Positions 16,532-62,376 of a stretch of DNA of 64,000 bases are shown in pieces. Source of the DNA: Escherichia phage vB_EcoM_G2248; the sequence record MK327932.1; one strand, 5' to 3'. Positions within the stretch are counted from its first letter, which is position 1, and every line of letters begins with the position of its first letter. Position numbers and translations under genes: made by a program. Below the pieces are notes generated by a model that was not told where the DNA came from, searched no databases, and saw only the letters and a list, made by a program, of their open reading frames with translations.

Positions 16532-19240
16532 TTAAATGTCAAACAGGTCAGTAAGCGATGCAACTTTTTCGTATTGCAGCTTTGCAGCCGTGGTAATGTT
16601 CTCCAGCGGTTTGACGAAAGTCTTATTAAACAACAAAGGCCAGTCTAACCACTTCAACACTTCTGATTCAATTTCTGGCGGAATACGAGTACCAGACAAC
16701 CAACCAAAACAGATTTCTCCAAACGGATTTCGATCTTTAAGCGGTACAATCATAACCTTCTCGCCTTCACGAATCGGATCTAGTCCGAATTTTCTGGCAT
16801 TACGATTATAACACAATACACTCTTAACCGCATACGGACAACCCTTAATCGGATACCCGTTTGAATCGCTGTATTTCTGTAGGTTGTTTGCCGATGATAC
16901 CGCAGCAACCTCAAGATAGTCAAGTTTTCGAAACTCTTGCTCAAAAATACCGTAGTATTCCTGCAATGACTCTTCCCCTTCCTGCAACATACGGCGAATA
17001 CATTCTTTCAGTGATTTCTGACATGCTTTAGGGGTGGAGCTACGTTGCGTTTCCAAGCCCATGATTTTTAGCTTAGGTTCAGCAAAGCGCGTTCCTTCCA
17101 TATCCCAAACATTAAGAGCATAACGCTTTTTGCCAGTCCAGAATCCACCGATACCCGCAGATTTCAACGGAGGACCAGCAATTGCCTCGCGGTCCATAAA
17201 CATCAAGTGCTCGTAGTTGTTCATGTACTCGCATAACTCGCGATATCCCTTGTCGATAATAGGTTCCATTCGATGTTTACCGAAATTATCAAGGAAGTCA
17301 ACAAGTTTTTCGGTATCGTCGAAACGGTCTTCCCCGCCAACCTTATCAATAACATTGTTAACCAGCACATAAACGGAGTCAGTATCACAATAACGAACAT
17401 ATGCAAAATCGGTTGTTCCGCAAAGATCGTTTAAGTATTCGTTAATCTTACGCTCAATCCACTGAATTGCAAGCTGACCGAACAGTGTGATCGCACTAGC
17501 GTTACGGAGATCATAAAAACGGAATTTAGGATTCCCCAACGCACCATAAAGGGAGTTGATCAAAACTTTTCGAGAAAGCTGGTTTGTATTGCACAAGATC
17601 GACTCGCCTTTACATTCTTCCAGCAATTTCTCTAAGGCATCTTTACTTAATTCAGAAAGCATCGATTTAAACGCTTCATCGAAGTCGTGACGCACTTCAA
17701 CGCTATAGCTAATGGTTCCCCCATAAACATGATTTTCATCGTGTAGAATCGCTTTACAGAGTTCAGCATTGCGATCACATGCCAACATCATGTTTTTGTA
17801 CTGCTTACGCTGATCGAATACCTTTTTAATCTCAATCGGTACGATACCATGAATATCTTTTCTATACATCCATCCGTTAGGCGAGCAAGAATACTCATCA
17901 CTCGGACGTGGTGCAGTTTTATTGATATACTCGTGCATCGGTGCAGCATCAAAAGATCCAGCGATTGTTTCAGGCGAAATGTTAACCTGTCGAATAATAG
18001 ATGGGTACAGACTTGTTAAGTCAAAGCTCATCATCCAACGGTAAGCATTCGGCACAGGTTCTTTTACGAATGCGCCTGGATACGTCTGCTTAGGCTGTAT
18101 CTTGTTCTCTGGTACTACTTTACCCTCAGCTTTCAGAGATCCGAAGATAATAGCATCCCATACTTTCATTGGGTTATAAACATGGTTAAATTTAATCTTT
18201 GCATAGAAACATAGGCTATACACCAGATCAATAAAACCACGCTTTTTATCAATCGCCAGCACACGGTCAACGTCGCCGATGTTATAATCTATGTAAAGTT
18301 GATGGTTGTCATCACGCAATTTCTTTAACGGACCATCATAATCAACCTTACCGATTCCGGTCTCATATTCAGCAACATAATCTAACGCATATGTTGGTTG
18401 AGTCGTAAAGCTAAATTTCTTGTACAGGTCAATATAATCAAGGCTTTCGATCCCCATGATCGTAAATGCTTCACGCTCGTTGCCAAAATCATCCTGTGAG
18501 ATTCGGGATTTAATCTTACCGCACGGGCTTAGACGGTTAGCGGTTCTACTTCCGAACTTATTACTGATACGTTTAATGATATACGGTATATCGAATGTTT
18601 CTGTGTTCCAGCCAGTGAAACCAACGGGTCGGTTTTCCTCAAAGAATCGGACGTATTCTAACAGCAATTCATCTTCTGTGTCATAGACGTTATAAACAAC
18701 GCGCTCTACAATATCAGGTCGAAGAATAGACTTGCTTGCTTCCCAGATTTCATCGTTTTTTCCTTTCAAATCAAATACAAAGAAACGATCATGTACGGAA
18801 TCATAATGCGTAATTGCATCGATAGGATATTTCGCTTCTTCTGGTTTAGGAAATTCTGGGGCAGTGACCTCGATATCAACCCATGCTACACGGATTTTAT
18901 TTCGGTCATATCGAATCTCTCCTTTATACGTATCGGACAGATAGGAGATGATAAAATCATCCATCCCTAGTGCCTCTTGCCCCATCTCCCCCATCTTTTT
19001 ACGCCATTTGTTGGCCTCGTTCATAGAGGGGAATTTTTTAGCAATGCAAGGCTTGCCATAGATATCTTTATAATTCGTCACCATACCAGGCGCGGCATGA
19101 TGAAATAAAGTTGGCGTATATTCAACGTAACGCTCTTGTTCTTGTCCAGCATCATCAATATAACGCTCGTAGATCTTATCACCCACTCGCTCACATGACA
19201 GAAAATACATAATATAAACTCCTTCACTTACGAAAGACAC
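16532..19240 (-). CDS. 43: family B DNA polymerase gp43
   Basis: 902 aa; exonuclease and polymerase motifs (DxE, YGDTDS-like CDTDSVYV, KxxxNSxYG) collinear with T4 gp43. Confidence 0.95.
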   Translation of the reverse strand: MSFVSEGVYIMYFLSCERVGDKIYERYIDDAGQEQERYVEYTPTLFHHAAPGMVTNYKDIYGKPCIAKKFPSMNEANKWRKKMGEMGQEALGMDDFIISYLSDTYKGEIRYDRNKIRVAWVDIEVTAPEFPKPEEAKYPIDAITHYDSVHDRFFVFDLKGKNDEIWEASKSILRPDIVERVVYNVYDTEDELLLEYVRFFEENRPVGFTGWNTETFDIPYIIKRISNKFGSRTANRLSPCGKIKSRISQDDFGNEREAFTIMGIESLDYIDLYKKFSFTTQPTYALDYVAEYETGIGKVDYDGPLKKLRDDNHQLYIDYNIGDVDRVLAIDKKRGFIDLVYSLCFYAKIKFNHVYNPMKVWDAIIFGSLKAEGKVVPENKIQPKQTYPGAFVKEPVPNAYRWMMSFDLTSLYPSIIRQVNISPETIAGSFDAAPMHEYINKTAPRPSDEYSCSPNGWMYRKDIHGIVPIEIKKVFDQRKQYKNMMLACDRNAELCKAILHDENHVYGGTISYSVEVRHDFDEAFKSMLSELSKDALEKLLEECKGESILCNTNQLSRKVLINSLYGALGNPKFRFYDLRNASAITLFGQLAIQWIERKINEYLNDLCGTTDFAYVRYCDTDSVYVLVNNVIDKVGGEDRFDDTEKLVDFLDNFGKHRMEPIIDKGYRELCEYMNNYEHLMFMDREAIAGPPLKSAGIGGFWTGKKRYALNVWDMEGTRFAEPKLKIMGLETQRSSTPKACQKSLKECIRRMLQEGEESLQEYYGIFEQEFRKLDYLEVAAVSSANNLQKYSDSNGYPIKGCPYAVKSVLCYNRNARKFGLDPIREGEKVMIVPLKDRNPFGEICFGWLSGTRIPPEIESEVLKWLDWPLLFNKTFVKPLENITTAAKLQYEKVASLTDLFDI

Positions 19241-19292
19241 TCATTATAGGGGAATCGACTTAGTTTGTCAATACCCCTATCTCATCAGTATC

Positions 19293-19655
19293 TTAGCGTC
19301 CGATCTGATATTTCTCGATCAGCGTCCACTCTTCTTTCTGTTTGAAAGACAGTACACGGAAATTATTAACTTCGGTAGTTTCAAAATCACTATCAATCAG
19401 GGTACACAGATTCCACTGCGCCAGAAGTTTTGCAATGTTATTACGGCGTAATTCATCTTCCCACGTCATTTTAACACTACGACCATCTAATTTCAACAAC
19501 TCCTTGAAATGAACGATGTAATAGCGCCCTTTCTTCTGGAGAATATGACAAGACTGATACAGTGTCTTGTCACGATTGTTGGCAATGCCGCAGCGGGTTA
19601 AAGTCTCCTTAATTTTAAGGAAGTTTTCAGGACTAATCAAATTAATTTCAATCAT
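19293..19655 (-). CDS. regA: translational repressor RegA
   Basis: 120 aa; near-identical blocks to T4 RegA (VLYQSCHILQKKG, NNFRV). Confidence 0.9.
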   Translation of the reverse strand: MIEINLISPENFLKIKETLTRCGIANNRDKTLYQSCHILQKKGRYYIVHFKELLKLDGRSVKMTWEDELRRNNIAKLLAQWNLCTLIDSDFETTEVNNFRVLSFKQKEEWTLIEKYQIGR

Positions 19656-19656
19656 T

Positions 19657-20235
19657 TTACCACCTTTCTATAATCTTTTTAAGTCGTTTCCTTTCTGTCT
19701 GATTCTTAGTAACACCCGCCAAAAGTTCATCGGTCGCATACGGTTTAATGTGCTTCAATAACTTGTCCATATATCCCTTTTCATTAGCCAAATCGAGATA
19801 AAACCGGGCGTCATCCATATTTACACAATATGCTTTCGCCACTGCCATTAAAACCAATTTTTGGTCCAATTCTTCTGTTAGTTTAGCCCATTTACCGTAT
19901 CGTTTCCCCTTAGAAATACTCTGTAAGAGATAATCAAAATGCATTTGATCTGGGAGGCCATGACCGATTAAATTCATCACATACGCGCTATATAGACAAT
20001 CTGCGTGCTGGGAAAGAGCGGTGTTAATCCATCTCTGGTTATATGCAGAATTGTTTCCCACATTAACGCGCTGTTTATCTAAGGTGATATGATCCATCAG
20101 AGCAAATAATGCATTGTCGGTTTTCTCGGTGAATGTGTCCGCTAGTTCAGACACTTTTTCCCAATCACGAGAGCGCCATGCAATTTCATGCTCGTTTAAT
20201 TGTGTATCATCTTCACCGAAAAATTGACCTAACAT
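19657..20235 (-). CDS. 62: clamp loader small subunit gp62
   Basis: 192 aa; position and KGKRYGKWAKL block. Confidence 0.85.
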   Translation of the reverse strand: MLGQFFGEDDTQLNEHEIAWRSRDWEKVSELADTFTEKTDNALFALMDHITLDKQRVNVGNNSAYNQRWINTALSQHADCLYSAYVMNLIGHGLPDQMHFDYLLQSISKGKRYGKWAKLTEELDQKLVLMAVAKAYCVNMDDARFYLDLANEKGYMDKLLKHIKPYATDELLAGVTKNQTERKRLKKIIERW

Positions 20236-34726: not shown

Positions 34727-36589
34727 TTACATGTGCTTAACGCGGTTTACCATCTCGGAGTGTTTCCCGTGGTTGAATGGACGCAGATCAACAGATCCAA
34801 GATATCCACTAACGCGACGGATAACATTCATCTTTTCCAGATTGTCATTGCCGCAATCAGGACAAACAAAACCAGACTCGGTCGCTCTCATTTCCTTAGT
34901 AGATCCGCATACATGACATACATCAGAAGGAGTATTAACACCGAAGTAGTGCAATTTATCCATTGCATAGTCTACTACAGTTTCAAGACCTTTCAGGTTG
35001 TTTTTCATGTCTGGGAACTCAACATAAGAGATCATGCCACCGGACGCCAGCCAGTGATAATCTTTCTCAAAGTCGATTTTCTCAAATGGAGTGACTTTCC
35101 GGTCTACGTCAAGGTGGAATGAGTTGGTGTACCAGTCTTTATCGGTAGCACCCTTAACAATACCAAATTGCTCTCGGTCCAGTCGATTAAATCGATAGCA
35201 AAGGCTCTCGGCTGGCGTACCGTAAAGACTAAACCCAAGTCCGGTTTCATCCTTCCATTTTTCAGTATAATGACGCAAGATCTTAAGAATATGTTTACCG
35301 TATCGCTGCGCATCTTCCGAATCAAACGGATGAACACCAAACAGGACGCTCAATACCTCATGTAAACCAATATATCCAAGAGAGATACTAGCGCGACCAT
35401 CTTTCAGAACTTCCAAAATTTCATCGTTTTGATGAATACGGAAAAATGCACCTTCTGTATACAGTACAGGAGCAACATTGGCTTTAGCCCCTTTTAAAGC
35501 GTCTACGCGACTCATGAGCGCATCAAAGCAAATAGGCATACGATTAGCTAGCTCTTGTTCGAATAGCTCAATTCTGCGCATTACAGACGCTTTACCAGCA
35601 CGACGCGCGGCAATAAGGGCAATACGCGGAAGATTTAGAGTCACAACACCTAAGTTATTACGTCCGTCTAATACTTCTTCGCCTTTCTCATTATGCCACA
35701 CACCCAGGAAGCTACGACAACCCATCGGGCTAACCGGAACACTAGATCCAGTGATACTACGGTTATTCTTCGCAGAGATATAATCAGGGTAAAGACGCTT
35801 ACTAGAACATTCCAATGCAAGTTGCTTAATGTCGTAGTTCGGATCTTCCGGTTTAAGGTTTAATCCTTCTTCTAAGAACATCACCAGCTTAGGAAACACC
35901 GGAGTTATACCGTCTTTACCTAAACCTTTAGTTCGAACTTTCAGGATCGCTTTCTGAATCAGTTTTTCTTCCCAGCTAGTACCCATACCAAAGGTTAAAG
36001 TCACAAAAGGCGTTTGACCGTTGGTGGAGAACAAAGTGTTGATTTCATATTCCAACGCTTGATACCCGTCTAGCGTTTCTTTTTCTGTCTTCTCTTGTGC
36101 ATAGAGAGTATCAGCTTTGATTCCGTAGGTTTCGGCATCAGCAAGGTGTTTATGATATGTTTTCTCAACGTATGGCGCTAAAACCTGATCGATGTTTGCA
36201 ATTGTGGTCCCGCCATATTGATGACTTGCCACCTGTGCGATAATTTGAGCGGTTACAGCACAAGCAACGCCGATCGATTTCGGACTTTCGATTTGTGCGC
36301 TACCCAATTTAAAACCATTCTCTAACATGTCTTTGAGATTAACAAGACAGCAGTTAGTAAACGGCATAGCGGGTGCATAATCCATATCATGATAATGAAT
36401 ATCACCATCTACATGCGCTTTATAGATGTGCTCAGGTAACACGGTTTTAGCAATCTGTTTAGACACAGCACCAGCAATCAGATCTCGACGTGTCGGGAAT
36501 GTTCGCGCGTCTTTGTTCGCGTTCTCTTTGCTTACTTCGTTTTCTTTACCCGTTGCGATCTCTGTAATGTCTTTGATTAGTTTTTCCAT
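34727..36589 (-). CDS. nrdD: anaerobic ribonucleoside-triphosphate reductase NrdD
   Basis: 620 aa, uninterrupted; C-terminal zinc ribbon CHVCG...CPDCG. Confidence 0.9.
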   Translation of the reverse strand: MEKLIKDITEIATGKENEVSKENANKDARTFPTRRDLIAGAVSKQIAKTVLPEHIYKAHVDGDIHYHDMDYAPAMPFTNCCLVNLKDMLENGFKLGSAQIESPKSIGVACAVTAQIIAQVASHQYGGTTIANIDQVLAPYVEKTYHKHLADAETYGIKADTLYAQEKTEKETLDGYQALEYEINTLFSTNGQTPFVTLTFGMGTSWEEKLIQKAILKVRTKGLGKDGITPVFPKLVMFLEEGLNLKPEDPNYDIKQLALECSSKRLYPDYISAKNNRSITGSSVPVSPMGCRSFLGVWHNEKGEEVLDGRNNLGVVTLNLPRIALIAARRAGKASVMRRIELFEQELANRMPICFDALMSRVDALKGAKANVAPVLYTEGAFFRIHQNDEILEVLKDGRASISLGYIGLHEVLSVLFGVHPFDSEDAQRYGKHILKILRHYTEKWKDETGLGFSLYGTPAESLCYRFNRLDREQFGIVKGATDKDWYTNSFHLDVDRKVTPFEKIDFEKDYHWLASGGMISYVEFPDMKNNLKGLETVVDYAMDKLHYFGVNTPSDVCHVCGSTKEMRATESGFVCPDCGNDNLEKMNVIRRVSGYLGSVDLRPFNHGKHSEMVNRVKHM

Positions 36590-36602
36590 TGTATCACCTA
36601 TG

Positions 36603-36624
36603 AAAAAGCGGGATTTTCTCCCGC
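36603..36624 (-). terminator. rho-independent terminator upstream of nrdD
   Basis: hairpin GCGGGA-GAAAA-UCCCGC + U5 between family member E and the nrdD RBS. Confidence 0.55.
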
Positions 36625-36634
36625 TCGTTGATAG

Positions 36635-37129
36635 TTATTTTACCAGTTCTGCTAATTCTTTTTCTTTAGCTTCTAGTTCAGCTTTAAGCTGTTTAATCTC
36701 TTGTCGCTTCTTATTAGCGGCTTCTTGCTTACTATTTCGGATAACCTGATCTAGATACAACTCCCAATCCTGAATATTTTTGATAATGTAACCGTCAACA
36801 TTAATTGGTCGGAGATTCAGTACAGCTTCCAGTTTAGTTGCAAAAACTTTAATTGCTGGTGTGAAGTATTCATATTCGTTATCTTCAAACCAATAACCTA
36901 GACTTGCATTCTCAATACGAAGATGAAGTTTAAGATCAAGGTCTTTATCATCGGTATATAGGTCTTTTACACACCCAATAGAATTAACAACAACTTTAAA
37001 ACGAATTTTATCTACACCACCAAACACATCTTCAAGAATATCAGCAATTGAGCTATTAGCGCAAGATTGGTCGCTGAATGCGTCAAGGTTTTCTTTAGTT
37101 ACAGTATACCAAACATCTTGTACCCACAT
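36635..37129 (-). CDS. paralogous family member E
   Basis: 164 aa; family-like N-terminal domain with K/E-rich coiled-coil tail. Confidence 0.45.
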   Translation of the reverse strand: MWVQDVWYTVTKENLDAFSDQSCANSSIADILEDVFGGVDKIRFKVVVNSIGCVKDLYTDDKDLDLKLHLRIENASLGYWFEDNEYEYFTPAIKVFATKLEAVLNLRPINVDGYIIKNIQDWELYLDQVIRNSKQEAANKKRQEIKQLKAELEAKEKELAELVK

Positions 37130-37159
37130 AATATAATCCTCTCGTTGTTAAGTGGGAGT

Positions 37160-37187
37160 ATTATAGCATACTCCCTTCGCATGTCAA
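37160..37187 (-). promoter_or_regulatory. early promoter cassette, stem-loop enclosing the -10
   Basis: TTGACA-N16-TATAAT with GGGAGTA...TACTCCC inverted repeat around the -10. Confidence 0.5.
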
Positions 37188-38362
37188 GCACTAACTTTTT
37201 TCTTTACTGCTTTCACCTTCTGGCGAATTGCTCGAATCTCTTCGATCTCTTTTTCAGTCTCTTTAACAATTTCTTTGCGATTCTGAATATCTGTATCTAG
37301 ATTATCATCAAGTTTAGGCAGCATGTCAATCAAGAACTTTTTAAAGTCTTTCAGGTTTCGGATAACAGCACCTTCACCCATTACCGCCACGCCTACACCA
37401 TCCGGCAGGTCGCCAAACAGTTTAACCAGTTCAGACAGATGATCATGATCTTCTAGTGCTTCTTCCGGTTCAGATGGCAGTTCCACAAAGTAATAACGTT
37501 CATCATTGCTGATCAGGTGATACCAGCAAAGCCCAAAAGATTTAGGAGTATATTCTACACCACCAACTTCAACTGCGTCAACACTTCCGAAAGAATCTAC
37601 TTTAGTTACCTTAAATCCATGTTCCAGCGTTTTAATAATTTCAATAACATGACTGGATACGGTTTCAGTATTAAACCAATGAGGCAAATTATGTGGATTT
37701 GGCTTGTATCGTTCGCCTACTTTAAATCTCTGACCACGCTCTTGCATACGGACATATTCAACTCGCGTGATTTCCGCGAAGTATTCAAATTCGCCACCGT
37801 CAAACACAGAAGCCCATTGATCACAAAAACGATCTGCCTTAACAGTTTCACCTTTCGCGGTGATCATGGTAGCTGATCCGTGCAATTCTTCTTCAACTAA
37901 AAAGCCATATTCGACAAAATCAACAAGTTTCATAGCTTCTTTGTGATCTGGATCATGCTCTCCCCAGAATCGCTTAAATTCTTGCAAACCTTCTGGGGTA
38001 AACGAATAACATTTACCTTTTTCAAAGTAAGTCGGCATTGCATCCTCTTTCTTGTTCATCGCTTCGTATGCCTCTTTTGAGATGCGTTTAAAGTATTTAC
38101 GCTCATTGTGCATAATCATAGTAGCCCAATAATCAACAATATCATTAGCGGAATAAACTACATCTCCAGCTTCAATAGTAATAACATGACCGTGGTCATC
38201 TTTTTCTAATACTTTAAAGCCCTTTTCTACGATTTCAGCAACACGAATATGACCACGGCGCGAAGCATCGGTCAGAATAATTGAATAGCGAGAAAAGTCT
38301 AGAAACTCATCTTTACCGCCTTCACGGAATGCATAGCAATGACCTTCAAAGAATTTAGCCAT
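37184..38362 (-). CDS. paralogous family member F (three domain copies)
   Basis: 392 aa; repeated ERKYFKRI / FEYFAEI / ERYYFVEL motif blocks; K/E-rich tail. Confidence 0.5.
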   Translation of the reverse strand: MAKFFEGHCYAFREGGKDEFLDFSRYSIILTDASRRGHIRVAEIVEKGFKVLEKDDHGHVITIEAGDVVYSANDIVDYWATMIMHNERKYFKRISKEAYEAMNKKEDAMPTYFEKGKCYSFTPEGLQEFKRFWGEHDPDHKEAMKLVDFVEYGFLVEEELHGSATMITAKGETVKADRFCDQWASVFDGGEFEYFAEITRVEYVRMQERGQRFKVGERYKPNPHNLPHWFNTETVSSHVIEIIKTLEHGFKVTKVDSFGSVDAVEVGGVEYTPKSFGLCWYHLISNDERYYFVELPSEPEEALEDHDHLSELVKLFGDLPDGVGVAVMGEGAVIRNLKDFKKFLIDMLPKLDDNLDTDIQNRKEIVKETEKEIEEIRAIRQKVKAVKKKVSA

Positions 38363-46892: not shown

Positions 46893-49037
46893 TTATTCAC
46901 GTCCATTTGTATAGTAGTGTTTGAATCGACCGTAACCAGTTTCAATGGTCATTGTTCTTTGGTGAACAATAGCCCAATAACCGTTACAGGAATCTTGCAG
47001 ATACAAATCTTTACCTTTCATAAACTCATTAAAGATTGTTTTCTGCCAGTCATAATAGACAGAATCTTCAATCTTATCCATCCAACCGTGTGGGTCTTCA
47101 AGCAGTTCAACAAGTTCATCGATAACCCAATACGGACACGGACTAAATCGACCTTTACTAAATTCGTTGAACACAGTAACGGTTTTAGCTTCCGGTCTAG
47201 GTTCATCAGGTTCTTCCGGTCGACGATTAACCACAACCTGAACATATTTTGTATAACCGATAATTTCCCCAGAGTCCAACTCATCGTTATTGTTCTGGTC
47301 AGCAAAAGCAACGAATCTATAGACTCCAGAGTCACCTATAGTAGCATTAACTTTTGTGTATATCGGTGTTTTGGGATCGATAATCGGCAACCGAACACCA
47401 TTTTTACTAAACTCATACGTTGGAACGTATGTAGAAGGAGGATTTAATGTCGTTGCTTCTAATGTCAAAGTATCCCCTTCCATAATCTGTACAGGATGAG
47501 GTCCGTCAAATTCCATATTAGGAACAACTTCAACATTATAGGTTGCACGCCCTGCAATATCATAATCATGATGCGCACTATATGGGTCTACACTAGGACT
47601 ATCTCTATATTCATGCGCCCAAATGCCATTATGTTCACGATCCGCAGAGTCAGTAATTTTATACTCTTTAGCCTCAATTGGTAGTTCGGTCACAAAAACA
47701 TCATTTTTTGTTATAACCAAAGAACGAGTTTGAGTAAAATCGCTACTTGCGGGTGGCTCTGGATCGACGATCTTAATAACAATAGGTTCACCAACCTCAA
47801 TATTTCGATAATCGTATTCTTTGTCATAAATGTCAAGCATACGACGGTCGTAAAATAATGGCCTTCCTTTATTGAGGTCATATGCACCATCTTGATTAGA
47901 AGGGGCAACTAGTAATTGTAAAGCAACGCTATTATCATACTGCAAGTCCGATAAAGTAATTCGGTCATAACCTTCATCGCCATATTTTTTGCTTTGTAGA
48001 GTTTTACCACCCAACATCCACGTAAAATAAACATTATTATTAATCAAACTATAATGTCGATTCCACGTATTATCGGATGTTACTAATGGCATATCTAGAT
48101 TGACGGTGGACCCAGAAGGATAACGAAATTCAACGGAATTAAAATCACGATCAAAAAATTCATTGTCTTTGATTGTTACCGTGAATCTATGACGATCACC
48201 ATCAATATATGCTGTCCCTTCTCTGGTTTCACTTGCGGCCTTATATGCACGAACCAAAGCAACATAAACACCCGCATCGGTTTCTTGAGCATGTTTCGTT
48301 ACAAACAGAGTCCTGTCTGTAGATTCATAAATTAAGCTACCATCTTCTCTTTCCAGACGATAACGGACAACGGTATATTCATCATTGGCGGGAGAATCGT
48401 CTGTCACCGTAAAATAGACAGGAGCATATTTCTGTGCGTTAAAAATTTCCGCGCTTTCCTGAATGGTGGCCTCAAACGGATAAACAAATTTCACGTCACC
48501 CGCTTCATCGCTAAGTTCCATTCTATATGTGCCAGAAAATTCAGGCCATGCAAATTTTGCAATTTTAAATTCACGATGGTCTAAACCAAGATCCCCGTCA
48601 ATAGTATCAACAAGACCGTCATTATAATAAAGGTCGATAGAAATGTTTTCTGGGATATGAATACGAAAAACAATTTTAGCCTTTATTTCGTCACCAACCA
48701 CAAAGGAAGTTGGAGGATATACATATTCAACATACTGATTATCAAATAATTCAAATGTGAAATTTTCCGTGCCGATATCAACGGATTCACCAGCAAAATC
48801 ATTATCATCTTGGGCATAGCCACGAACATTAACAGACCATCCTGTTTTATCGCTTTCTTTCACAGATTTTAATTCAAAAGACGGTGTATCGGTTGTAGCA
48901 ACAACCACCCCACCTTTTTTCCAAACATAACCTTTTTTCGGTTTAGTTGGATCATCTGATTCGGCAGCAATTGAGCACGCGAACGTATGAGGAAGCCAAA
49001 TGGTTGTGTTAATGCTAGTATCTTTTACTTCTGGCAT
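46893..49037 (-). CDS. large beta-rich protein, function unknown
   Basis: 714 aa; strong SD GGGGGAA; repetitive beta-strand-like segments and distinct C-terminal domain; followed by terminator 46856-46883. Confidence 0.55.
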   Translation of the reverse strand: MPEVKDTSINTTIWLPHTFACSIAAESDDPTKPKKGYVWKKGGVVVATTDTPSFELKSVKESDKTGWSVNVRGYAQDDNDFAGESVDIGTENFTFELFDNQYVEYVYPPTSFVVGDEIKAKIVFRIHIPENISIDLYYNDGLVDTIDGDLGLDHREFKIAKFAWPEFSGTYRMELSDEAGDVKFVYPFEATIQESAEIFNAQKYAPVYFTVTDDSPANDEYTVVRYRLEREDGSLIYESTDRTLFVTKHAQETDAGVYVALVRAYKAASETREGTAYIDGDRHRFTVTIKDNEFFDRDFNSVEFRYPSGSTVNLDMPLVTSDNTWNRHYSLINNNVYFTWMLGGKTLQSKKYGDEGYDRITLSDLQYDNSVALQLLVAPSNQDGAYDLNKGRPLFYDRRMLDIYDKEYDYRNIEVGEPIVIKIVDPEPPASSDFTQTRSLVITKNDVFVTELPIEAKEYKITDSADREHNGIWAHEYRDSPSVDPYSAHHDYDIAGRATYNVEVVPNMEFDGPHPVQIMEGDTLTLEATTLNPPSTYVPTYEFSKNGVRLPIIDPKTPIYTKVNATIGDSGVYRFVAFADQNNNDELDSGEIIGYTKYVQVVVNRRPEEPDEPRPEAKTVTVFNEFSKGRFSPCPYWVIDELVELLEDPHGWMDKIEDSVYYDWQKTIFNEFMKGKDLYLQDSCNGYWAIVHQRTMTIETGYGRFKHYYTNGRE

Positions 49038-49059: not shown

Positions 49060-49458
49060 TTAAGCCAGTCGAGTGAGTTTATAAATGGTTTTAAAGCATA
49101 GAGCTTTGATATCGTCTAAAACGCTCTGTAACGAGCTATCAACATCATTATAAATCTCACTAGCCATTTGCGTTAACTCTTGCAAATAGGCAATTTCGCT
49201 AATCTCCTTGCGGACGACCAACGTTGGTTGATAACGACCAGTGATCCCAATATTGGTTTCAGTGAAATTATCAACCAATTCTTGCATTTCAAGATAGAAC
49301 TCTTCTAGCGCCTTATGTTTTGCATAAGAACCAGGACCAGTCACCCCAAAATGCGCAGAATGCATATAAGTAACACTCATCAGACATTCACCGATAAAGC
49401 GGTCAACTTTATTAGCTTTCCCGTCTTCGGACGTCTTTCGAAAATCACTGAATTTCAT
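49060..49458 (-). CDS. hypothetical protein, possibly ferritin/Dps-like
   Basis: start at internal ATG with GGAG SD (MKFSDF...); HSAHFGVTGPGSYAKHKALEEFY resembles the Dps H-x12-H ferroxidase helix. Confidence 0.35.
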   Translation of the reverse strand: MKFSDFRKTSEDGKANKVDRFIGECLMSVTYMHSAHFGVTGPGSYAKHKALEEFYLEMQELVDNFTETNIGITGRYQPTLVVRKEISEIAYLQELTQMASEIYNDVDSSLQSVLDDIKALCFKTIYKLTRLA

Positions 49459-49747
49459 GTTCTCGATTCTCCATATTATGCAACATAACAAATTGGTTTG
49501 CGGCATATTCCCCCATAATAAAACACTGCTTAGAGTCCATACATTTACTACGAGCGTACATCTTCATAATGTGGGCATGAAATTTCTGGCTGGTTTCAAT
49601 GGAAGGAGATATTTTGTTTACATATACTATCATCGCACCGTCGAAATAATCAGTAAAGTCACCAGTTAGATCATATTGATCAGCACTGACACTTCCGACC
49701 GCTGTCAAGCATATTGCCGTTGTTAGAGTTTTACGAATAAATGACAT
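49445..49747 (-). CDS. small secreted protein (signal peptide)
   Basis: 100 aa; N-terminal MSFIRKTLTTAICLTAVGSVSA; late-promoter motif TATAAATA about 33 nt upstream. Confidence 0.5.
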   Translation of the reverse strand: MSFIRKTLTTAICLTAVGSVSADQYDLTGDFTDYFDGAMIVYVNKISPSIETSQKFHAHIMKMYARSKCMDSKQCFIMGEYAANQFVMLHNMENREHEIQ

Positions 49748-49780
49748 GAGTCATTCCCCCAGATTGAAAATATTCAGTTA

Positions 49781-49788
49781 TATTTATA
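49781..49788 (-). promoter_or_regulatory. candidate T4-type late promoter (TATAAATA)
   Basis: minus-sense TATAAATA about 33 nt upstream of the ATG of the secreted-protein gene 49445-49747. Confidence 0.35.
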
Positions 49789-49815
49789 ATCTGGGGCTTT
49801 ATTTATGATTAACTC

Positions 49816-60126: not shown

Positions 60127-60312
60127 TCAGAAATATGCAATATAGTTTGCCAGTCCTACAGAGTCATCATTCGGCATTGCTTTTACTGCCAGTTCAAACC
60201 CTACTTCAACTTTCTGTTTAGCGGATTCTTCGTTATAACCCCAGATTACCAGAATAGCTACTACGTTTTCTTTGCTTACTGCTTTCAGTGCTTTAGTGAT
60301 GCGACGTGCCAT
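60127..60312 (-). CDS. hypothetical protein
   Basis: 61 aa; GGAGAATCAAATTATG start; promoter at 60359-60387. Confidence 0.5.
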   Translation of the reverse strand: MARRITKALKAVSKENVVAILVIWGYNEESAKQKVEVGFELAVKAMPNDDSVGLANYIAYF

Positions 60313-60358
60313 AATTTGATTCTCCGTTTAAGAAAGTGTGTTTCGTTTCGATGGGTGT

Positions 60359-60387
60359 ATTATGCTATAGGCCGGATCTGGTGTCAA
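60359..60387 (-). promoter_or_regulatory. early promoter
   Basis: TTGACA-N17-CATAAT then ACACCCATCGAAACGAAACAC leader. Confidence 0.55.
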
Positions 60388-60415
60388 CAACTTTTTTAAA
60401 AAAATTTTAGGCAAT

Positions 60416-60439
60416 AAAAAAGCCACTCCGAAGAGTGGC
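60416..60439 (-). terminator. rho-independent terminator ending the structured RNA region
   Basis: hairpin GCCACUC-UUCG-GAGUGGC + U6. Confidence 0.6.
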
Positions 60440-60584
60440 TTATAGGGAAGGTAGCGAATCTTCCTTGTCTCCAACCTGCTAGCGGCCTAGCAAGTGAATG
60501 CTTTAGCGTACCGGATCGCCCATACGCTGCAATAAATGCGGCTAGGTGACGTCCAAATCATTCTAACCGCGCTGTCTTTAGTTC
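60416..60584 (-). ncRNA. candidate structured small RNA between a late-promoter motif and a terminator
   Basis: about 170 nt without convincing ORF; four consecutive hairpins (8-bp GCGGTTAG/CTAGCCGC, 6-bp AGCGTA/TACGCT, 8-bp CTTGCTAG/CTAGCAGG, 5-bp GGAAG/CTTCC) then terminator GCCACTC-CGAA-GAGTGGC + U-run; TATAAATA at 60590-60597 upstream. Confidence 0.35.
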
Positions 60585-60588
60585 ACTA

Positions 60589-60807
60589 TTATTTATATCG
60601 CTTTCTCTCGCGACGTTTTTGATCTTCTTCCTTGATAGAGTTAAATGCATCAAAAAGACACATGACACTAATAATAAACATAACCGTATTTTCTACGGTA
60701 TCCCACGGCTTCGCATCAGTACAGATCCCCCAAACGGTAAGAAATGCAAATAAGGCAGAAGAGATCACAAGAATGATACTTGCTAAAATATAAAAAGTCA
60801 TTTTCAT
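60589..60807 (-). CDS. small membrane protein
   Basis: 72 aa, hydrophobic N-terminus, basic C-terminus. Confidence 0.45.
   Translation of the reverse strand: MKMTFYILASIILVISSALFAFLTVWGICTDAKPWDTVENTVMFIISVMCLFDAFNSIKEEDQKRRERKRYK
60590..60597 (-). promoter_or_regulatory. candidate T4-type late promoter (TATAAATA)
   Basis: minus-sense TATAAATA overlapping the stop of ORF 60589-60807, directly upstream of the structured non-coding region. Confidence 0.35.
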
Positions 60808-60998
60808 GGTTTTACCTCAATTCTTCGATATTCATCACACATCCACGCAGTAAGCAAGAATCCCAACACATAAGCAACAAAATACGTTAATGCTTCTTCT
60901 GGTTCGGTGCTATGCGCCATCATCAGACCAGCGAGAAAGGTCTTAACAATTACATTTAAAATAATTAGCCACGCAAATAATTTCATCGTTTGCCCCAT
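60804..60998 (-). CDS. small membrane protein
   Basis: 64 aa. Confidence 0.45.
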   Translation of the reverse strand: MGQTMKLFAWLIILNVIVKTFLAGLMMAHSTEPEEALTYFVAYVLGFLLTAWMCDEYRRIEVKP

Positions 60999-62347: not shown

Positions 62348-62376
62348 ATTATGCTATAGTCGTTTATGGTTGTCAA
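62348..62376 (-). promoter_or_regulatory. early promoter
   Basis: TTGACA-N17-CATAAT then GCACATATCGAAACGAAACAC leader. Confidence 0.55.

Follow-up and report, generated by a model that had tools for sequence, protein, structure and literature searches.

A conserved structured RNA element behind a late-promoter motif in Krischvirus phages: a candidate non-coding RNA gene

Anatomy of the locus

In the window, by which the whole analysed stretch of 64,000 nt from Escherichia phage vB_EcoM_G2248 is meant, about 150 nt of minus-strand sequence separate the stop codon of ORF 60589-60807 from the next terminator. Does this sequence specify an RNA of its own, is it the untranslated tail of an early messenger, or does it act as DNA, as the template of a very small protein or not at all? 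The first-pass annotation had taken it for the locus of a structured, non-coding RNA, flanked by a late promoter on its 5' side and a terminator on its 3' side. This proposal is supported by selection, by covariation, by the loss of reading frames among variants and by the retention of the promoter octamer at a fixed spacing. As far as sequence comparison can tell, the locus is a genuine and conserved feature, most likely a structured RNA that is expressed late. It is unannotated: no RNA is given here in any of the records examined.

The window belongs to a Krischvirus (RB49/JSE/GEC-3S type), and the region shows 98-100% identity to RB49-type coliphages (JSE, RB49, phi1, GEC-3S and others); positions 60410-60600 (191 nt) agree with JSE at 100%. 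The genes run on the minus strand in the order gene 1, 57A and 57B/Acb1, then a number of small ORFs, dmd among them, and ORF 60589-60807; after these come the element, a terminator with an early promoter, and a DUF7421 gene. The intergenic gap that JSE has at this place measures 279 nt, which is among the largest in the first 70 kb, the ordinary promoter-cassette gaps being about 66-80 nt. The other large JSE gap (49406-49736) is coding sequence in the window. At 46893-49037 (minus strand) a single 714-aa ORF is present in the window versus several shorter genes and a 329-nt gap annotated in JSE, so the window's phage differs from JSE at that site. In the JSE annotation (17062-20204; 35715-38337; L037) the DNA polymerase is given as two coding sequences 527 nt apart and nrdD is split around a homing endonuclease gene; the Rfam scan of the window detected no intron. 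The features of the locus are the following.

60589..60807, minus strand: upstream ORF of 72 aa, a small membrane-like protein (phrog_15168), the final gene of the early unit with dmd
60590..60597, minus strand: T4-type (gp55) late-promoter motif TATAAATA, a perfect octamer that overlaps the last codons and the stop of ORF 60589-60807 (TAT AAA TAA)
60571..60584, minus strand: 5' leader with the predicted late +1; single-stranded GAACUAAAGACAGC, the +1 being the G at 60584, sixth base past the motif
60538..60570, minus strand: SL1, with an 8-bp basal stem (GCGGUUAG/CUAGCCGC), a 4-bp apical stem and the loop UUGGAC
60505..60528, minus strand: SL2, with a stem of 7 bp plus 2 bp and a hypervariable apical loop with indels of 1-2 nt
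60470..60498, minus strand: SL3, with an 8-bp stem CUUGCUAG/CUAGCAGG, the loop GCCG and a 4-bp extension UUCA/UGGA
60446..60464, minus strand: SL4, with the 5-bp stem GGAAG/CUUCC and the 9-nt loop AUUCGCUAC
60448..60469, minus strand: most conserved block, GACAAGGAAGAUUCGCUACCUU, antisense to E. coli 23S rRNA nt 1927-1947
60414..60441, minus strand: intrinsic terminator, AAGCCACUC-UUCG-GAGUGGCUU plus a U tract, common to the early operon and the predicted late RNA
60359..60387, minus strand: early promoter of the next unit, sigma-70-type, TTGACA-17-CATAAT, which forms with the terminator a repeated PeSL-type cassette
60127..60312, minus strand: downstream gene, 61 aa, DUF7421, found 3' of the element in both lineages with contigs long enough

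The minimum-energy and the centroid fold of the minus strand concur in four hairpins, and the computed folds are close to the stems of 8, 6, 8 and 5 bp that had been read from the letters at first pass. The folding z-score is by itself modest: it amounts to -4.0 with the terminator and to -2.67 without it, in which case 2 of 200 shuffles fold equally well. The terminator had likewise been recognized correctly; it has a 9-bp stem and a UUCG loop (60441-60420) followed by a U tract, and at 60441-60414 it is already annotated as such in the GEC-3S and Makalu phages. By inspection for a riboswitch-type antiterminator, the best alternative pairing with either terminator arm was 4 bp. A search for internal repeats or iterons and for paralogues of the element gave none. 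In some relatives the terminator loop (60428-60433) is reverse-complemented while the stem is intact (TTCG to CGAA in FL15, L031; CGGA in L044 versus TCCG in L045), which looks like repeated hairpin-mediated inversion.

The 3' end of ORF 60589-60807 (minus strand) reads TAT AAA TAA TAG TGA. Three in-frame stops (TAA TAG TGA; 60581-60592) therefore end this ORF, the first located within the late-promoter motif and the last overlapping the predicted transcription start. The ~150 nt that follow are non-coding, as had been claimed: the longest ATG frame has 24 aa (60487-60561) and no good SD, and no conserved ORF is present.

Conservation and divergent relatives

The element was found in 58 of 58 Krischvirus records, the identical set to the 58 with gene 1, in one copy per genome. 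In a BLAST search of 50,697 phage genomes the matches beyond these 58 records were restricted to the terminator hairpin. The E. coli genomes gave no match to the element by BLAST, which detects long matches only, and a 21-mer search of the GTDB genomes gave none. The same type of search in metagenomes returned two Krischvirus-like contigs and one chance match, and pattern scans of IMG/VR yielded nothing beyond two contigs already known. The Rfam and tRNA scans that had been suggested at first pass assign the element to no known family and identify no tRNA: with Rfam 15 the whole window had no match at gathering thresholds, 60200-60900 had at E up to 10 weak, terminator-driven matches that were all far below threshold, and ARAGORN found no tRNA or tmRNA genes in the 64 kb.

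Selection was assessed in 15 distinct sequences, which extend from the two upstream ORFs over element and cassette and include the downstream ORF (sources: GenBank phages, IMG/VR, ENA and Logan contigs). At four-fold sites pi was 0.168 and 0.126 in the two upstream ORFs and 0.065 in the downstream ORF, and in the 17-nt promoter spacer, 40 nt downstream, it was 0.142. Within the element the values were 0.015 for the leader with SL1, 0.069 for SL2 including its loop and 0.005 for SL3, linker and SL4 together; the terminator had 0.018. The element evolves 5-30 times slower than the nearby four-fold codon sites and the adjacent promoter spacer. The constraint on the loops, the linkers and the 5' leader equals that on the stems, which argues for sequence-specific recognition and not for a generic structural barrier. 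Divergence along the region is a mosaic, with a block boundary near 60620, and this made recent shared ancestry a concern as the source of the high conservation. It was rejected, because the spacer and the four-fold sites of the same block have diverged.

Within Krischvirus all stem substitutions preserve pairing. One pair in SL2 runs from G-C through G.U to A-U, and four other pairs, counted genus-wide, change to G.U. The formal covariation signal within the genus is weak because there is so little variation. More distant relatives were located with Acb1 as an anchor. In the uncultured contigs L044 and L045, whose Acb1 is 60% identical, a gap of ~600 nt without a called gene precedes the DUF7421 gene, and its final 180 nt are a diverged copy of the element. 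A covariance model trained on Krischvirus sequences only (R1) recovers both copies at full length with 68 bits and E ~1e-17. From a weak R1 match two further lineages, L050 and L048, were reached, which are both truncated by contig ends. The element is thus present in three more divergent uncultured lineages (L044/L045, L048 and L050), which makes four including Krischvirus. R1 found nothing in T4 69000-76500 (the tRNA/rnaC/rnaD region) or in the rest of JSE, and it matched none of the 25 other loci at which the pattern of promoter plus leader occurs in IMG/VR. The DUF7421 gene (60127-60312) has relatives at 74-79% aa identity in phage genomes of ~50 kb (loci L006-L021), which suggests transfer between very different phage types; in two of these ~50-kb-phage loci R1 found no element.

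The covariance check across relatives was positive. In the R1 alignment with L044 and L045, which was fitted to the structure of R1 and for that reason leans towards structure, 99.2% of the cells pair and seven pairs are changed on both sides: two in SL1, four in SL2 and one in SL3. As controls, six slid registers gave none with a both-side change, and 0-1 of 500 shuffles reached the observed values. When L044, L045 and L050 were folded independently the same succession of hairpins was obtained. In SL3 of L044, U-A is replaced by C-G and C-G by U.G; L050 has a 6-bp SL3 stem with a GUCG loop, as in L044. From SL4 of L044 one A-U pair is gone on both sides (GGAG/CUCC), the loop being identical.

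The unpaired parts are recognizable over the same distance. The leader (A/G)(A/G)CUAAA(A/G)ACA is conserved in the four lineages. The SL1 stems of L048 and L050 are wholly different, and the apical loop always contains GGA (UUGGAC, UAGGAUU, UAGGAUG, AGGAA and CGGA in five sequences). Lineages reaching that far have in common the spacer UUUAUU (AUUUU in L050), the SL3 loop G(C/U)CG and the block GACAAGG(A)AGAUUCGCUACC. Three motifs do not change with the stems: the linker GACAAGG, the SL4 loop AUUCGCUAC and the GGA in the loop of SL1.

The late-promoter motif and the readings of the element

The perfect TATAAATA that had been noticed directly upstream of the element is indeed present at 60597-60590. 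The number of octamers in the window is no proof by itself, but it shows the motif to be depleted (2 observed versus 5.8 expected from shuffles); the complete JSE genome has 13 perfect copies versus ~20 expected from base composition. Twelve of these 13 sit 20-42 nt upstream of the SD and ATG of an annotated gene (genes 53, 9, 18, 22, 24, uvsW, 51, 34, a tail-fibre gene, a homing endonuclease, gene 31 and rI); the copy of the element is the 13th. In front of genes 18 and 22 of JSE the octamer overlaps the stop of the preceding gene, as it does at the element. Genes 55 and 45 are annotated in JSE. The only other TATAAATA of the window (49788-49781) lies in the loop of a hairpin CCCCAGAU...AUCUGGGG (49740-49800, minus strand), and the Shine-Dalgarno sequence of rI (49445-49747) forms the 3' arm of that hairpin. 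The same early-silent, late-active design is known for the T4 genes e, soc, 49 and I-TevI (PMC3014915).

In all four lineages TATAAATA is kept 7-8 nt before the CUAAA leader. The upstream ORFs differ between the lineages, being unrelated or diverged, and the octamer is read in their frames as TAT-AAA-TAA (Y-K-stop), gTA-TAA-ATA (V-stop) or xT-ATA-AAT-A (I-N). As it is kept in three frames at a fixed spacing, coding constraint cannot explain the pattern and a promoter can. On the strand of the element it is the sole TATAAATA in 2.7-12.8 kb at three of the four lineage loci and one of two in L048. The T4 late-promoter motif spans -13 to -6 (rule quoted in PMC1524935), which would put the +1 at 60584. 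The 5 nt between the motif and this predicted +1 are variable across the four lineages, and conservation resumes at +1. The element's TATAAATA is not among the 17 predicted RB49 late promoters in a list published in 2006. A metagenome contig, L040 (MAVA01000028.1, 3330-3345), has lost 14 nt, and with them TATAAATA and the three stop codons, and has two extra A's upstream; the C-terminus of its ORF is rewritten and its RNA element is identical. This implies that the promoter is dispensable at least in the short term, or that the contig is defective.

We think it probable, with some reserve, that the element is an unannotated gene, the product of which is a structured non-coding RNA of ~168 nt. 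This would be transcribed late from a promoter of its own, and at early times it would form the 3' UTR of the dmd operon. Late in infection the gp55/gp33/gp45 apparatus would start at ~60584, six bases past TATAAATA, and the transcript would end at the intrinsic terminator at ~60417, so that these ~168 nt would comprise four hairpins behind a 5' leader that is rich in A and conserved. In the early phase this sequence would be the 3' UTR of the dmd-carrying operon, because no terminator is found between the early promoters (62376 and 61929) and the element, and the terminator would be shared. The structured 3' UTR that the first-pass annotation had offered as an alternative can in this respect be retained in part: early transcripts are expected to carry the element as such, and it has a late-promoter motif of its own as well. 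The RNA would most likely act in trans by binding a protein or RNA partner through its single-stranded motifs. A literature search returned no Krischvirus transcriptome paper.

A purely cis-acting 3' UTR, in which the hairpins would only shield or insulate the mRNA of the early dmd operon (from 3' exonucleases or read-through, for instance), is a real though minor possibility; TATAAATA would then be silent or would only feed late transcription to the downstream genes. The element necessarily ends the early unit, with promoters at 62376 and 61929 and the first terminator at 60441, and L040 keeps it without TATAAATA. However, the terminator hairpin by itself would block exonucleases, and a generic barrier has no need for loops, linkers and a leader that are as invariant as the stems. 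Moreover, the upstream genes of L044 are different (neither dmd nor ORF72 is present), yet element and TATAAATA are both kept, and no other TATAAATA outside promoter positions is tolerated in the genome. That the locus works as DNA, as a site for recombination, replication or a DNA-binding protein with incidental RNA folds, is very unlikely: it adjoins a promoter/terminator cassette proposed for modular recombination (PMC2839356) and a boundary of the divergence blocks is located near 60620, but the compensatory changes and the G.U intermediates indicate that one strand, of one polarity, pairs with itself, internal repeats or iterons are lacking, and the element is single-copy, unlike the cassettes.

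We regard one or more very small proteins as very unlikely indeed, either from the 24-aa ATG frame or from the frames of 47-48 aa called by some annotators. It is true that the ATG of the 24-aa frame lies 28 nt past TATAAATA, which is a typical late promoter-to-ATG distance, and that ORFs are annotated here in some GenBank records. However, the frame has no usable SD, SL1 buries its AUG, and L044, L048 and L050 lack the ATG. Among variants the 24-aa frame becomes 15, 19, 24 or ~63 aa long through the indels in the SL2 loop, the annotated frames are not the same in different records and continue across the terminator and the next promoter, the ORFs within the element of L044 are without counterpart in the window, and conservation is equal over all three frames. 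A neutral spacer in which hairpins and motif arose by chance would agree with a z-score of only -2.67 without the terminator and with a TATAAATA count in the window that is not above expectation; it is contradicted by the selection, the covariation, the occurrence in four lineages and the co-conservation of the motif, and is exceedingly improbable.

Possible partners and comparison with known systems

For a non-coding RNA, the preferred reading, partners were sought by complementarity. Antisense targets in the window and in the whole JSE genome were counted at or below shuffle expectation. A check of the E. coli rRNA operon revealed that the block GACAAGGAAGAUUCGCUACCUU is antisense to 23S rRNA 1927-1947, with 9 bp and 11 bp on the two sides of A1938. 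The block of L044 can pair collinearly with the same stretch at 19 of 21 positions. Dinucleotide shuffles attained the pairing score in 2 of 1000 and 5 of 1000 cases. This complementarity is suggestive only, an unexplained lead and not a finding. It is unlikely that the RNA is an antisense to the host large subunit. On this reading the invariant block GACAAGG(A)AGAUUCGCUACCU(U) would pair with 23S 1927-1947, starting from the 9-nt SL4 loop, and free 50S subunits would thereby be modulated, protected or disabled in late infection. We take this target to be the universally conserved helix/loop 70-71 at the subunit interface, with U1939 in it; it presumably also includes the UUCCU that is cut by the mycobacterial MazF toxin in free 50S subunits. 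We know of no precedent for a phage RNA that targets rRNA. In L044 (5514-5524) the loop of SL2, UUAGCUACCGG, nearly repeats that of SL4, UUCGCUACC; this SL2 loop is a perfect complement of 23S rRNA 2716-2726 and of 16S rRNA 163-172, which that of the window is not. A RegB/S1 site was considered with the cleavage-site consensus GGAGRAYARAA (PMC3014915) and was rejected, as GGAGACAAGGA of the window and GGAGAUUCGCU of L044 fit it poorly past GGAG.

According to a 2010 review of post-transcriptional control in T4, no riboswitch or trans-acting small RNA had been functionally characterised in this phage, the roles of RNAC and RNAD were unknown, and the genomes of T4 relatives might suggest candidates (PMC3014915). 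The element is such a candidate: its boundaries are clear, its start and end can be predicted, and it can be compared between four lineages. Its host phages RB49, phi1, JSE and GEC-3S are easily grown and are in phage-therapy use. As it is located a few genes downstream of the counter-defence genes Acb1 and dmd, a role against defences or in translation takeover is worth testing. If confirmed, it would be the first late-promoter-driven non-coding RNA gene of a T4-type phage and a new RNA family.

Several known systems share one or more properties with the element. CsrB/McaS-type RNAs titrate CsrA, for which RUACARGGAUGU is a selected ligand. The element keeps the GGA of the SL1 loop in five sequences, and ACAAGGA of its linker is the core of that ligand. 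Unlike CsrB and McaS it offers two candidate sites only, ~95 nt apart, the second of which is partly paired in SL4; by manual count the window's element has four GGA versus an estimate of about three expected. The packaging RNA of phi29 is a phage-encoded structured RNA of ~170 nt. The predicted RNA of the element is alike in size, but no similarity and no Rfam match were found, and to our knowledge T4-type packaging motors need no RNA. PeSL cassettes, which consist of a stem-loop, an AT-rich tract and a sigma-70-type promoter and occur in many copies in RB49-type genomes (PMC2839356, PMC4122927), are represented here by the terminator (60441-60414) with the early promoter (60387-60359). Such cassettes are short and repeated and follow directly on the preceding stop, whereas the 150-nt element is located upstream of its cassette. 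The genome repeats the cassette's promoter and 5'-UTR part at other places but not the 150-nt element; being single-copy, the latter is not part of the PeSL cassette. Because of these cassettes assemblies break just after the element.

The analogy with the stable RNAs of T4 that the first-pass annotation had drawn is valid for the map position and not for sequence or structure. T4 RNAC and RNAD (species 1 and 2 RNA) and the element's predicted RNA are both small RNAs of the early strand situated between 57B and the lysis gene: the element is downstream of 1-57A-57B, as RNAC and RNAD are, and the order in the window continues to the endolysin. Local alignments of the element with rnaC and rnaD were at best 8-13 nt, and no likeness of sequence or structure was seen. 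In related lineages the slot between 57B and the lysis gene is taken by tRNA clusters. L046, L047, L049, L051 and L052 (T4-like, Acb1 51-56% identical) have 3-13 tRNA genes in the slot after 57B/Acb1, and an R1 search of these found no element. One tRNA of L049 has the anticodon CTA and is an amber suppressor, labelled Pyl by ARAGORN. RB49 has no tRNA genes (PMC1524935). RNAC and RNAD lie inside a tRNA cluster, directly after tRNA-Arg, whereas the element's phage is without tRNA genes in the window. RNAC ends in a T-arm-like GGTTCGAATCC; the element instead has a late-promoter motif and an intrinsic terminator.

Judged by its architecture, the element appears closest to the bacterial small RNA that is embedded in a 3' UTR and has its own promoter. 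DapZ and MicL of enterobacteria are of this kind: their promoter lies inside the upstream gene and the terminator of the mRNA is shared, so that one sequence occurs both in the tail of the mRNA and as an RNA by itself. Likewise, as far as sequence features go, the promoter motif of the element overlaps the end of the upstream coding sequence and its terminator is common with the mRNA. Unlike DapZ and MicL, the element would depend on a phage late promoter, and with ~168 nt and four hairpins its predicted RNA is larger and more structured.
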